From: a virus | Lineage: Duplodnaviria; Heunggongvirae; Uroviricota; Caudoviricetes | IMG/VR virus record: IMGVR_UViG_2869953405_000005 | DNA length: 15,464 nucleotides | Reading direction: 5' to 3' (one strand) | In this document: positions 3,002 through 10,047 of the stretch, in pieces | Layout of the letters: every line of letters starts with the position of its first letter | Position numbering within the stretch: position 1 is the stretch's first letter | Notes under the pieces: model-generated | Databases searched by the model: none | The model's input: only the letters and a program-made list of their open reading frames with translations | Told to the model about the DNA's origin: nothing | Translations under genes and position numbers: made by a program

Positions 3002-3143
3002 GGGTATAAGGGGTTATGGCCACCGGACTACCAAACGGCTGCCAGCCCTCTTTCAGTTTATGTGTCAGCTTTTCCGCAAGATCTGACGGCGGCGCCGCCC
3101 TGACAACATCATAGTGTTTAAATGCCATGGTTCTTTCCACCAT
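3002..3143 (-). pseudogene. N-terminal fragment of a small gene interrupted by the IS600 end
   Basis: Minus-strand ORF MVERTMAFKHYDVVRAAPPSDLAEKLTHKLKEGWQPFGSPVAITPY runs into the IS600 terminus at 3001; GGTGGAAAG precedes the second ATG (3126-3128). Confidence 0.3.
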
Positions 3144-3321
3144 CTGAAAAATAATTCTTTAAAATACCTGACATGTAATACAGAAAAAACACAAAACCAT
3201 ACCTTAAATAAAAACCTGATTATCAAGCAGATATGCATGGATAAACTACAAGACGAGATATAAACCACCCTGCATTTAAATAAACAATAAACAACATCAG
3301 AAAAATAATTCTGCTCTATGG

Positions 3322-3348
3322 TTTACATTCAAAAATATCATTTATACT
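3322..3348 (+). promoter_or_regulatory. candidate sigma70 promoter for ORF 3389..3724 (TTTACA, 15-nt spacer, TATACT)
   Basis: Hexamers read directly from the sequence at 3322-3327 and 3343-3348; spacing is suboptimal at 15 nt. Confidence 0.3.
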
Positions 3349-3388
3349 TTTCAGAACATCACCAGCAAGGCATAAACAAGGAAACTAA

Positions 3389-3724
3389 ATGAAGTGGATT
3401 GTGATTGATACAGTTATCCAGCCATCATGCGGAATATCTTTTTCAGTCATATGGAGTAAAATAAAATTAATAATCTGGTATCAATCGGATGCTTTCTTAC
3501 CTCCTGAAAGTATATTTACACTGACTCACACAGGCATCATGCTCAATAACAAAGTGCTACCTGTAACCATTTACAACGTAGTACCATTCAATAAAACATT
3601 CTGGAATTCAATCAAAAATAGCCAGGAATGCCCTACAAATACAGATAACGTATTGAATGAATGCTTTAATAACCGTTGCACTCTGCAAATATGTCCTTAT
3701 GGACTAAAACAACAAAGTCCATAA
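3389..3724 (+). CDS. hypothetical Cys-rich small protein (111 aa), orphan
   Basis: ATG preceded by AAGGA about 8 nt upstream; 6 of 12 Ile codons are ATA (manual count); C-terminal third has 5 Cys; lies in AT-rich DNA; no family recognised. Confidence 0.45.
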
Positions 3725-3758
3725 GGAGTTTACTCACATCTGACAAAATCAATATAAA

Positions 3759-3780
3759 CAGCCCCTCCGGAGAGGGGCTG
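3759..3780 (-). terminator. intrinsic-terminator-like hairpin (9-bp perfect stem, 4-nt loop) with T-rich tract on the minus strand
   Basis: CAGCCCCTC-CGGA-GAGGGGCTG; on the minus strand it is followed by TTTATATTGATTTTG; no T-tract on the plus strand. Confidence 0.45.
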
Positions 3781-4171
3781 GAGAGTGGCGCTATGTGCCA
3801 TTGCATGGTGCCGGGTGCCTCCCGGTGAATTCAGTACCAGCACCTGAATCCGCGATTATCCCATATACCTACTCGCTGATTGCCCCTCCGCACAGGGGGA
3901 TTCACCATGCCAGTTTCTTTTAACAAACTCCCCGCAAACCAGACAACAGTCAACCGCCTGAATTGTGAAGTATTTAAAAATTTCTCCCGCTAACTGATAC
4001 CCGGCTAACAGTCTGGCGTTTTCTTTTTCAGCAACGGGAAAGCAACAACCACCACACCCGCCACCAGCACACCGTCAGCCAGCACTGACATTATCCGGCT
4101 GCTGCAATGCCATTCACAAAAACAGTAAGCAATCACTTTTTACCGTAACAGGTGATAATCCAGATATGTAT

Positions 4172-6216: not shown

Positions 6217-6473
6217 CAGCGCAGCACCTCCTGCACCAGTTTTTCAAACTTTCCGACTCTGGTTTCCAGCTCTGCCACACAGTCCACCAGCTCATCTACT
6301 GCTTTCTGTGCGCGATGCTTCGCCTGCATCAGTTCCCGAAGCGCGGGTACCATATCTTTACGGATAGCGTCTTTTGTTATGCCCGTTTTTTCGAGTTGTT
6401 CAGCATGACGCAGCATTTCCTGCGCGTGTTTACGCAATTGTTCAGGGGTAAAAGTCATTGTCTGGTTGTTCAA
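6216..6473 (-). CDS. hypothetical phage nin-region protein (80-85 aa; start ambiguous: TTG at 6473 or ATG at 6458)
   Basis: Stop overlaps the rusA start (TGATG); helical, charged sequence; no family recognised. Confidence 0.45.
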   Translation of the reverse strand: MNNQTMTFTPEQLRKHAQEMLRHAEQLEKTGITKDAIRKDMVPALRELMQAKHRAQKAVDELVDCVAELETRVGKFEKLVQEVLR

Positions 6474-6807
6474 AAGAAACGCTCCATCTTACTGCTGTCA
6501 GTTCGTTTATTACTGTATCTGCGCGGATTGCCGGGCTTCATGGGAGTGGAAAGCACCCGTGCACTTTCCTGGTCCACAGGCAGAAAATGTCCGTAGACTG
6601 GCCCCCTGAATCTCCAGACAACCAGTATCACTTAAATAAGTGATAGTCTTAATACTAGTTTTTAGACTAGTCATTGGAGTACAGATGATTGATGTCTTAG
6701 GGCCGGAGAAACGCAGACGGCGTACCACACAGGAAAAGATCGCAATTGTGTCAACGCCACGATGTTTGACCGTTATTTGCCATTTTCATGCCCGCTAAAT
6801 ACTTTCG

Positions 6808-7608
6808 TTACTGATGCTGTCCGCTTTCCACCATTTCATCATCACTGATTGGCGTTGTGTTTTTGGTCAGCACTCCAGCTTTACGTTTCTCTTTTAACCG
6901 GTAACTCTCTCCTTTGATATTCAGCGTGGTTGAGTGATGTAGCAGCCGATCCAGGATCGCTGTTGCCAGTACGTGATCTCCGAACATTTCTCCCCAGTCT
7001 GCGAACCCTTTGTTTGACGTCAGTATGATGCTCGCTTTTTCATATCGACGGTTCAGTAGCCGGAAGAACAGACTGGCTTCCTCTCTGTTCATCGGCAGAT
7101 AGCCTATTTCATCCAGGATCAACACCCGGGCATAACTCAGTTGCTGTAGCTGACGCTCCAGCCGGTTTTCCTGTTTCGCTTTCATCAGTGTCGCGATCAG
7201 TCTGTCCAGTGGCATAAACAGTACCCGATGTCCCGCATCCACCGCTTTCACGCCAAGAGCTATGGCCAGATGAGTTTTTCCGACACCAGGAGGGCCCAGC
7301 AGGATCACGTTTTCGCTGCGCTCCACGAACGCCAGACCAGCCAGTTCCCGGACAACCTTACGGTCGATGCCCGGCTGGAAGGTAAAGTCGAACTGCTCCA
7401 GCGTTTTGACCCACGGCAGACGAGCCTGCTTCAGCCTGGACTCCATACCGCGCTGATGCCTGCCGTTCCATTCCTGCTGTAGCGCCATGCACAGGAACTC
7501 CCGGTAGTTCAGCTCTTTTTTAGCTGCCTGTTCCAGCAGGCTTTCAACGTGATAACTCAGATGCTCCATTTTCAGGCGACTCAGCAGGACTTCCAGTTCA
7601 TGCATCAC
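6808..7608 (-). CDS. istB: IstB-like ATP-binding transposition helper (IS21 family)
   Basis: 266 aa with Walker [12 protein letters not shown] and Walker B-like LILDEIGY. Confidence 0.9.
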
Positions 7609-8777
7609 AACAGCTCCTCATAGGCACTCAGTGGTCGATGTTCCACCTGACTGACCTGCTGCCAGAGCGGGGCGTGATGCTCCGGCACTGTCTGCCAGCC
7701 AGACGATGCTGAACAGAGGCGATGTGAGGCCACCAGTTTCTCATTACTGTAGATCCGCAACTCGTCATCCAGCGATATTCGTATCGATACCGGCTGACCA
7801 CACAGCGCTTCGGGAACGCTGTAACGATTACCACCAACCTCGATATAGCTGTCCCAGGACACATGGCGGATATCGAAGTAACTGGTATCGAAGTCTGTAT
7901 CCGGTAACGGCTGCAGATGTTCCTGCTCCAGCGCGAAGCGCTGTTCCGGCGTTTCTTTGAACTGGCGAAGCTCCCGTTTGTCAGCCACATCGGCTATCCA
8001 TTGCTCCAGTTGTTGATTGACATGAGTGAAGCTGTCGAACCTGCGGTACCGGACGAAGAAGTTCTCCTTGAGGTATTTCACCATCCGCTCAACCTTACCT
8101 TTTGTTCTGGCCCTGCGTGGACGGCATGCCCGTGGCAGGAAGTTATAGTAGTCAGCCAGCAACAGGAATCCGGAGTTGAACACGACTTTCCCGTTGTTAT
8201 TCTTCAGCACCGCAGCCTTCTGGTTATCAACCAGCACCGTTTTCACACAACCACCGAAGTAGCGGAAGGCGCGAACCAGTGATTCGTAGGTATGCTCAGC
8301 ATCCTGTTTTGGTGCGGCGAAGACATGGAAGCTGCGGGAGAACCCCAGCGTATTAACCGCAAAGTTAACTTTGCACCGTTGCCCGGCAACCTCCACCTCA
8401 ACTTCGCCCCAGTCATGCTGGAGCTGGTATCCAGGCTGAGTTTCGAAGCGAACTGTTCTTTTTGACGGACGCATTTTACGTTTGGGCTGGATGTAGTAAC
8501 GCAGCATGGAACGTCCGCCCGTATAACCCATTGCCTTAATCTCCGCGAAGATAACCTCGCTATTCCAGACATTCTCTGCCAGGCGCATGTCGATGTAATC
8601 CATAAACGGTTTCAGCTTAACCATTTTGTGGCGGGTCTTTCTGGCTGGCGGTTCAGGGTATTTGAGGTAGCGTCTGACCGTCCGTTCAGAGCAACCAATC
8701 TGAGTCGCAATATCGACGATGTACGCGCCCTGCTGGCGCATTTGCTTTATCATGTAAAAGTCCTCTCTGCTCAGCAT
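7605..8777 (-). CDS. istA: IstA transposase (IS21 family)
   Basis: 390 aa, N-terminal HTH followed by a DDE-type core; closely matches recalled IS21 IstA. Confidence 0.9.
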
Positions 8778-9025
8778 GTTGATGTCCTTTCTGGTGTGAG
8801 AACCTTAAGGAAACAACATGGTGTAGCAGCCAGCCAGTTATTTCTCTGGCGTAAGCAATACCAGGAAGGAAGTCTTACTGCTGTCGCCGCCGGAGAACAG
8901 GTTGTTCCTGCCTCTGAACTTGCTGCCGCCATGAAGCAGATTAAAGAACTCCAGCGCCTGCTCGGCAAGAAAACGATGGAAAATGAACTCCTCAAAGAAG
9001 CCGTTGAATATGGACGGGCAAAAAA

Positions 9026-9931
9026 GTGGATAGCGCACGCGCCCTTATTGCCCGGGGATGGGGAGTAAGCTTAGTCAGCCGTTGTCTCCGGGTGTCGCGT
9101 GCGCAGTTGCACGTCATTCTCAGACGAACCGATGACTGGATGGATGGCCGCCGCAGTCGTCACACTGATGATACGGATGTGCTTCTCCGTATACACCATG
9201 TTATCGGAGAGCTGCCCACGTATGGTTATCGTCGGGTATGGGCGCTGCTTCGCAGACAGGCAGAACTTGATGGTATGCCTGCGATCAATGCCAAACGTGT
9301 TTACCGGATCATGCGCCAGAATGCGCTGTTGCTTGAGCGAAAACCTGCTGTACCGCCATCGAAACGGGCACATACAGGCAGAGTGGCCGTGAAAGAAAGC
9401 AATCAGCGATGGTGCTCTGACGGGTTCGAGTTCTGCTGTGATAACGGAGAGAGACTGCGTGTCACGTTCGCGCTGGACTGCTGTGATCGTGAGGCACTGC
9501 ACTGGGCGGTGACTACCGGCGGCTTCAACAGTGAAACAGTACAGGACGTCATGCTGGGAGCGGTGGAACGCCGCTTCGGCAACGATCTTCCGTCGTCTCC
9601 AGTGGAGTGGCTGACGGATAATGGTTCATGCTACCGGGCTAATGAAACACGCCAGTTCGCCCGGATGTTGGGACTTGAACCGAAGAACACGGCGGTGCGG
9701 AGTCCGGAGAGTAACGGAATAGCAGAGAGCTTCGTGAAAACGATAAAGCGTGACTACATCAGTATCATGCCCAAACCAGACGGGTTAACGGCAGCAAAGA
9801 ACCTTGCAGAGGCGTTCGAGCATTATAACGAATGGCATCCGCATAGTGCGCTGGGTTATCGCTCGCCACGGGAATATCTGCGGCAGCGGGCTTGTAATGG
9901 GTTAAGTGATAACAGATGTCTGGAAATATAG
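9026..9931 (+). CDS. insD: IS2 InsD (orfB, DDE transposase part)
   Basis: 301-aa ORF matching recalled IS2 InsD; overlaps the insC end at the A6G frameshift site. Confidence 0.9.
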
Positions 9932-10047
9932 GGGCAAATCCAGTCCGTTATAAAAACGCCGGTAAATCGTTCCCAGAGAACCGTGAGGTAGCCTGAGTTT
10001 AACGGACACTCCTTCCTGAAATAGAATGGCATCAGAAGGAGCTAATA

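Follow-up and report, generated by a model that had tools for sequence, protein, structure and literature searches.

A toxin-free version of the Stx2a-phage late module in an insertion-sequence-ridden prophage remnant of Shigella sonnei

In the Shiga toxin 2a (Stx2a) phage Stx2_EH1910 (LC567834.1), the late-control region has the order ydfU, rusA, Q, a hypothetical gene and a methylase gene, tRNA(CAU), tRNA-Arg(UCG), tRNA-Arg(UCU), stx2A, stx2B, the small RNA (sRNA) gene STnc100, iraM on the opposite strand, nanS-p and holin. The K-12 prophages Qin and DLP12 also have Q followed by a variable accessory slot before the holin gene, with other cargo genes, which we take to be cspB/cspF in Qin and nmpC in DLP12. 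In Shigella dysenteriae 1, stx lies in a defective prophage with the insertion sequence (IS) IS600 upstream (PMC7819885). Here we describe a related locus in a 15,464-nucleotide stretch of DNA filed as a virus of the Caudoviricetes (IMG/VR record IMGVR_UViG_2869953405_000005), called the window below. The original prediction for this DNA, made from its letters alone, was of an Stx-phage-like late module with undescribed cargo in the toxin position, bracketed by IS600 copies. We read positions 3002–6592 as a 3.6-kb remnant that comprises the last part of the nin region, the late-gene switch and the accessory ('moron') slot before the lysis genes, and that is the common toxin-free version of the backbone carrying stx2AB; we put the probability of this reading at roughly 0.9.

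The comparison with Stx2_EH1910 is the most direct evidence. Both have rusA, Q, the candidate late promoter and terminator (PR'/tR'), tRNA(CAU), tRNA-Arg(UCU), STnc100, opposite-strand iraM and a DUF1737-headed gene, in the same order and orientation. Where the phage carries stx2AB, the window has a gene for a 92-aa protein and a gene for a DUF3927 protein. Intact argN, the hypothetical gene and DNA methylase gene between tR' and the tRNAs, ydfU, full-length nanS-p and the lysis cassette are present in the phage only. BLAST homology between the two ends just past tRNA-Arg(UCU) and restarts at the 5' flank of STnc100, about 45 nt beyond stx2B. Since this break falls where stx2AB sits, window 3969–4620 is the positional stx slot. 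An Stx-phage-type late-control module is therefore borne out by the 91% identity of Q, the conserved sequence of the PR'/tR' region, the tRNAs and the position of the slot. The elements follow one another on the minus strand in the predicted order, each where it had been placed or close to it. It was also correctly foreseen that the slot would hold no stx-like open reading frame (ORF): tblastn with Stx2A/B on the window gave nothing better than E = 1, and the slot ORFs belong to other families. When Stx1A from an Stx1a phage was scanned against the genome collection, no locus encoding Stx1A was found.

The exact 284-aa Q occurs in complete S. sonnei chromosomes, in which the neighbouring genes are likewise the same, and window 1738–15464 matches the S. 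sonnei loci L004 and L007 in one piece of 13.7 kb at 99.84% identity. The window is thus a stretch of the S. sonnei chromosome. Judged by its sequence, it is an IS-ridden lambdoid prophage remnant.

Essentially the same DNA is found in Stx-free lambdoid prophages (enteroaggregative E. coli 042 at 2.255 Mb and E. coli WP2-S18-ESBL-08) and in the phages mEp460_ev081 and vB_EcoS-640R1. These relatives share with the window iraM, STnc100, DUF3927, the 92-aa gene, the tRNA pair and a pseudo-argN, and remain 98% identical through Q and rusA. Unlike the window, they continue with holin-to-terminase genes on one side and with DUF968, hokD and replication genes on the other; DUF968 precedes rusA in them, whereas the window has an 85-aa Stx-phage-type gene there. 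The gene names ydfU, rusA, quuQ and YdfR recur among them. Window 2999–6210 aligns with the prophage of E. coli WP2-S18-ESBL-08 as one block at 98.0% identity, and 3969–4635 is 99.3% identical in mEp460_ev081. The whole accessory slot (3002–4635; 1,634 bp) aligns with E. coli 042 end to end, with seven substitutions and no indel (99.6% identity), and 864 of 5,426 complete E. coli genomes contain 80% of it or more. Downstream of the slot, these genomes and vB_EcoS-640R1 carry a hypothetical gene and then holin, YdfR, lysozyme, Rz, HNH and terminase.

These results separate the two halves of the original prediction. The positional equivalence of the slot to stx is right; 'undescribed cargo' is wrong, and so is the description of its genes as orphan ORFs. 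The prediction had named end-to-end alignment of 3002–4635 with annotated, characterised genes as the observation that would count against it. Because the slot aligns with E. coli 042 over its full length, is widespread and has its ORFs in named families (IraM NF007393, DUF3927, DUF1737 and phrog_2873), this is essentially what we find, with the limit that for two of the genes the annotation goes no further than a family of unknown function. The locus is already sequenced and largely annotated, as a toxin-free, IS-truncated variant of a very common lambdoid late module.

The Q antiterminator gene (4991–5845, minus strand) belongs to the Q-lambda family (PF03589, E = 7e-55). Profile comparison with solved Q-lambda structures gave 7UBM at 1.8e-40 and 4MO1 at 4.6e-28, and a DnaJ-like CxxCxGxG zinc module is inserted in the protein. 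The Q of Stx2_EH1910 is its 91% identical counterpart, and the exact protein is filed in public records as 'antitermination protein [Shigella sonnei]'. The homology to Q families on which the predicted Q-like gene was to be judged is therefore present. The protein has 284 aa here and 273 aa, with an intact stop, in E. coli relatives. Relative to three E. coli-type relatives, the window lacks 8 bp (GTAACAAG) at 5024–5030 on the minus strand; in the Stx2a phage, the corresponding 8 bp are present but diverged. Because this deletion took out the stop codon, Q reads 11 codons further, through the −35 and −10 elements of the candidate PR'.

Upstream of Q lies rusA (5842–6216, minus strand), which encodes a Holliday-junction resolvase of 124 aa (PF05866, 1.8e-16); against NF007305 the protein scores 81 bits, under the model cut-off of 200. 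The preceding gene (6216–6473, minus strand) had been labelled a nin ORF. The gene is there, and the label needs correction: it is a complete gene of 85 aa, 93% identical over its whole length to Stx1a499_250, which sits between the replication protein and Q in the Stx1a phage Stx1_499. At the DNA level, this region is 78% identical to Stx2_EH1910 9134–9514. A PHROG match at the end of a 204-aa profile would make the ORF a piece of DUF968 or a C-terminal fragment; we rejected this assignment, as the ORF equals the full-length Stx1a-phage gene. Beyond it, 119 bp of the 3' end of a replication gene remain (6474–6592) and contain stop codons.

The control region downstream of Q was compared by aligning the 3' end of the window's Q with the same region of four relatives (E. 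coli WP2, phage 640R1, mEp460 and Stx2_EH1910). All five sequences share the block GTTGATTTTTCC(G/C)GAATCTGTGGTAAATT, in which a single base varies, and a conserved hairpin with a T-run follows about 65 nt downstream. From the resemblance to lambda PR', we take 4999–5026 to be PR' and 4922–4951 to be tR', both on the minus strand. The candidate promoter consists of TTGATT, a 16-nt spacer and an extended −10 element, TG-n-TAAATT, and overlaps the 3' end of the extended Q. The tR'-type intrinsic terminator, recorded by the terminator scan, is AACCCGCCGCCGAGCGGGTT followed by TTTTATT, and its hairpin is kept in all four relatives. The number of sites found by scanning is not above chance, either for terminators (4 against 2.1 ± 1.6 expected) or for promoters (6 against 5.1 ± 2.2 expected).

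Downstream of tR' is the ileZ-argN-argO cluster. The ileZ-type tRNA(CAU) (4813–4888, minus strand; Rfam 72.5 bits) and the argO-type tRNA-Arg(UCU) (4636–4712, minus strand; Rfam 68 bits) were both called by ARAGORN, as the predicted pair of tRNAs; what the prediction had missed is a degenerate third tRNA between them. This argN-type tRNA-Arg(UCG) remnant (4713–4812, minus strand) was recognised by alignment with the three-tRNA cluster of Stx2_EH1910, and ARAGORN called no tRNA there. It keeps the acceptor and T-arm ends with the middle replaced, and E. coli WP2 has this remnant as well. The tRNA(CAU) is identical to the Stx2a-phage copy, and the tRNA-Arg(UCU) differs from it by one base. In E. 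coli, the NCBI annotation pipeline (PGAP) labels the identical tRNA(CAU) gene tRNA-Ile.

The far side of the stx position is marked by an STnc100-family sRNA gene (3750–3939, minus strand), which scores 132.4 bits against a gathering score of 47 over model positions 1–206 (RF02076, E = 1.7e-29). A structured GC-rich island had been noted here. The island exists, with a GC content of 55%, but it is this Rfam sRNA and hence not undescribed. Its single-sequence fold has a z-score of only −1.5, so the structure rests on the Rfam model and not on energy. The gene has its own intrinsic terminator (3759–3780, minus strand; terminator scan), followed by a T-rich tail, and a candidate extended −10 element is seen in the invariant TTTGTTAAAA motif, which lies upstream of the conserved core. 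In Stx2_EH1910, a member of the family begins 75 nt past stx2B. For related copies, a position 75 nt downstream of stx2 and detection by RT-qPCR have been reported (PMC12370729), as has overlap with the Hfq-binding sRNA EcOnc27/sRNA103, downstream of stx2B (PMC12711010). STnc100 is also related to the PasD sRNAs, which adjoin Q and holin/lysozyme genes (bioRxiv 10.64898/2026.05.13.724894). PGAP places a 'hypothetical' partial pseudogene on the plus strand over 3795–3920; this is the STnc100 sRNA. Phage vB_EcoS-640R1 (L002) has two STnc100 copies about 460 bp apart (4749–4937 and 5213–5406; 132 and 138 bits), and copy number differs among otherwise similar slots.

On the opposite strand, an intact gene (3389–3724, plus strand) encodes an IraM-family anti-adaptor of 111 aa (NF007393, 162 bits against a cut-off of 121). 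The protein matches the PDB entry 8TWD, 'Anti-adapter protein IraM', at 6.3e-31. It is 61% identical over 107 aa to K-12 IraM and 72% identical to the iraM product of the Stx2a phage, and differs by one residue from the E. coli 042 protein. In K-12, iraM lies elsewhere, beside e14. By analogy with K-12 IraM, the product would bind RssB and stabilise RpoS.

The DUF1737 gene (3002–3143, minus strand) is represented by its 5' part, the first 47 codons (PF08410, 1.5e-15; phrog_2036 positions 1–48 of 67). By tblastn, 43 aa of its product align at 90.7% identity with the N-terminal end of the Stx-phage protein NanS-p. The ORF is truncated by IS600 and runs into it as far as 2955, whereas the gene of E. 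coli 042 continues for 59 bp further. Between DUF1737 and the divergent iraM-like gene is an AT-rich intergenic region (3144–3388; 28.6% GC), in which we identified by eye a candidate iraM promoter (TTTACA at 3322–3327, a 15-nt spacer and TATACT at 3343–3348). A 21-nt direct repeat occurs at 3138–3158 and 3292–3312, with the minus-strand sequence AGAATTATTTTTC[A/T]GATG[G/T]TG. Its first copy covers the DUF1737 start codon, and the second would start a hydrophobic ORF of 24 aa (MLFIVYLNAGWFISRLVVYPCISA). The repeat could have arisen by duplication of a translation-start region, or it could be the scar of a recombination event.

The stx position itself holds two genes. The ORF of the 92-aa protein (4172–4450, minus strand; alternative starts ATG 4498 and TTG 4525) matches phrog_2873 at 3.8e-70, a family of phage proteins of 92–108 aa. 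An exhaustive search gave homologues at 32–63% identity, several with the same N-terminal start residue, that share the motifs ERAxAFSRLTVLFCTPDR and LVQEYN. The frame is open in a DNA relative of 73% identity, with differences of 35/33/55 over the three codon positions. From this alignment AlphaFold2 predicts a pair of long helices with a small beta hairpin between them (pLDDT 88.7). From this conservation and the confident model, we regard the ORF as a real gene. The protein has no match in Pfam or NCBIfam, and none at E ≤ 1 in a profile search of the PDB. Its exact sequence is in GenBank as 'hypothetical protein', and the E. coli 042 protein differs by one residue. In a tblastn search of phage genomes, mEp460_ev081 was the only match. 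PGAP leaves the gene uncalled in E. coli 042 and WP2 (L020 5636–6134; L001 5136–5634).

Downstream of it, a 43-aa DUF3927 / TciB-like small membrane protein is encoded at 4005–4136 (minus strand; PF13064, 1.7e-27). The Pfam score is 95.6 bits against a gathering score of 25, phrog_1470 'TciB-like' is matched at 7.8e-13, and the protein is identical in E. coli 042. PHROGs files DUF3927 as 'moron ... TciB-like inhibition of cell division or resistance to colicin', a label transferred by homology. Distant homologues of the 92-aa protein (38%) are found in phage late regions with the gene order 95-aa protein, TerB-like protein, DUF3927, two holins and endolysin. This recurrent linkage upstream of lysis genes suggests that the 92-aa gene and DUF3927 are a functional pair. 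A homologue at 56% identity follows an AraC-type regulator and precedes an STnc100 copy, and one at 33% identity lies beside PapB and usher genes. Divergent homologues stand either directly after an AraC-type gene, with a 22-bp gap, or beside PapB/usher fimbrial genes (L013 164–1261; L019 2507–4276). Such neighbours hint at a role as a regulatory partner.

The alternative that survives best is the one originally proposed, that the slot holds an undescribed, functionally important moron, with the 92-aa gene and DUF3927 expressed through Q and PR' as Shiga toxin is and benefiting the host or excluding phages. The pair lies exactly where stx2AB sits in Stx2_EH1910, both of its ORFs are intact and conserved, and the distant 92-aa homologues stand just upstream of holins with TerB-like and DUF3927. 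The 'moron' category in PHROGs and the absence of the 92-aa gene from the PGAP annotation of E. coli 042 and WP2 point the same way. However, hundreds of E. coli genomes carry the pair, as does mEp460_ev081, and it is catalogued in PHROGs, Pfam and GenBank. It shows no similarity to toxin, effector or defence families in Pfam, NCBIfam, PHROGs or the PDB, its fold matches are generic coiled coils, and the 'TciB' label is a homology-transferred annotation. We consider this alternative unlikely. A demonstrable host- or phage-relevant function of the pair is in our view doubtful. We are equally hesitant about a more specific proposal, a Q-dependent two-gene cassette that is swappable with stx2AB at a fixed recombination site between argO and STnc100 and has a real function, for example membrane-acting superinfection exclusion, colicin tolerance or regulation.

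A second alternative is that the slot is prophage DNA in decay, without function, whose ORFs are due to chance. That the prophage is defective is clear. The slot is AT-rich (GC content 40.5%, and 29–31% in intergenic stretches, compared with 49.3% in the whole window) and contains many short ORFs. DUF1737 is truncated and argN is degenerate; the iraM-like gene, DUF3927 and the 92-aa gene are intact, and each differs by at most one residue from E. coli 042. These three genes also occur in inducible or plaque-forming relatives (mEp460_ev081 and vB_EcoS-640R1), STnc100 scores far over the Rfam threshold, and members of the 92-aa family at only 32% identity still have its length and motifs. Decay of this kind is very improbable.

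If the toxin-free module works as lambda-type late control does, PR' would be constitutive and its transcripts would end at tR' after about 65 nt. Q, when made, would modify RNA polymerase at PR' and allow read-through past tR' into the tRNAs, the 92-aa gene, DUF3927, STnc100, iraM in antisense, the DUF1737 stub and IS600, in this order. In the S. sonnei strain such read-through is probably weak, as the early promoters driving Q are gone. The early region was severed by IS2/IS21, leaving only 119 bp of the replication gene with stops, so expression of Q is probably low. The parts most likely to be active are those that could be expressed independently, namely the two tRNAs, which would decode AUA and AGA, the sRNA, provided that it has its own promoter, and the iraM-like gene, from the divergent AT-rich region.

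The remnant lacks both of its former neighbourhoods. Holin, lysozyme, Rz and terminase genes, present in the relatives, are not found, and at 3001/3002 the cut DUF1737 gene borders directly on IS600. The downstream holin, lysozyme, Rz, terminase, head and tail genes were removed by IS600, and the upstream replication and immunity genes by IS2/IS21.

Several points weigh against reading 3002–6592 as a toxin-free late module of the usual kind. The 11-aa C-terminal extension of Q overlaps PR'. We infer transcription from PR', the activity of Q and any separate promoters for the sRNA and the iraM-like gene. The region upstream of the iraM-like gene fails to align with its K-12 counterpart, which gives no ground for assuming control by PhoP. 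Foldseek searches of the 92-aa protein against the PDB and BFVD returned only generic coiled-coil or prefoldin-like hairpins (E ≥ 0.026). Around the module, the order of genes is scrambled: a Ren-like/DUF977 gene fragment, which normally lies beyond Q, is left of the first IS600 copy (1333–1738, minus strand; phrog_142; 90.9% identical to E. coli WP2 DNA). Both the tail-fibre genes and ipaH face the opposite way, which for the tail-fibre genes is the wrong direction for a single late operon. Because of this scrambling, the flanks may derive from a different prophage.

The toxin-free form of the Stx2a-phage backbone is widespread, in about 16% of complete E. coli genomes and in S. sonnei. The comparison marks the place of the toxin operon as a swappable cassette site between two conserved RNA genes, argO and STnc100. 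An incoming Stx phage would meet in S. sonnei hundreds of bases to kilobases of DNA of 78–100% identity (Q, PR', the tRNAs, the sRNA and iraM), and such shared DNA is a potential recombination substrate. Beyond annotation the locus has little significance. For annotators, it holds a 92-aa gene skipped by PGAP and an STnc100 gene miscalled as a pseudogene. The residual novelty is confined to the pair of the 92-aa gene and DUF3927.

The predicted IS600 bracket is real. The first copy (1738–3001, plus strand) is 1,264 bp long, has the ends TGAGGTAG...CACCTCA, contains ORFs of 100 and 272 aa and cuts inside the DUF1737 gene. The second (9984–12023, plus strand) is in direct orientation to the first and is split by an IS1 (10498–11265) with a 9-bp duplication. 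Neither has the 3-bp target duplication of IS600, as the flanks are ttt/ggg for the first copy and ccg/agg for the second. As a composite transposon the two fit no better, with mismatched outer (ttt/agg) and inner (ggg/ccg) flanks. The missing duplications, the non-matching outer flanks and the scrambled gene order favour IS-mediated recombination or deletion over a composite transposon.

About half of the bracketed interval (3002–9983) is IS2 and a truncated IS21-family element. IS2 (6593–9942, plus strand), identified by BLAST against the IS2 of L001, is interrupted by the IS21-family element (6750–8813). The latter was recognised from Pfam domains of its minus-strand products, istB (6808–7608) and istA (7605–8777), and matches IS21 at 99.9%. 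One end, TGTCAACGCC..., is at 6750. On the istA side there is no matching inverted repeat and 43 bp of IS2 are missing, which points to a deletion at that junction after the element had inserted.

A third alternative makes the bracket itself the relevant feature, the 7-kb segment being a composite, mobilisable or amplifiable unit like the stx region of S. dysenteriae 1, and although two direct IS600 copies do enclose 3002–9983 and IS600 does lie upstream of stx in the defective prophage of that species, we give it hardly any weight, since neither the individual copies nor the pair have matching 3-bp duplications, the second copy is disrupted by IS1, half of the segment is IS2/IS21 debris and the arrangement is constant across S. 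sonnei genomes except for IS1 positions. The resemblance to S. dysenteriae 1 is of a simpler kind. Its Stx prophage, too, is an IS-eroded lambdoid remnant in Shigella with IS600 beside the toxin slot (PMC7819885), which supports what the original prediction stated of a defective prophage there. Unlike the window, which lies in S. sonnei and has no stx, it carries the toxin genes.

To the right of the second IS600 copy, tail-fibre ORFs (DUF4376) occupy 12008–13533 on the plus strand and adjoin a gene for a 583-aa IpaH-type type III effector with LRR_TTSS and NEL domains (13713–15464, minus strand). Together they form the right end of a prophage, which faces the opposite way to the Q module. At the other end of the window, there is an additional IS1 copy at 508–1275 that the S. 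sonnei loci L004, L007 and L010 lack.

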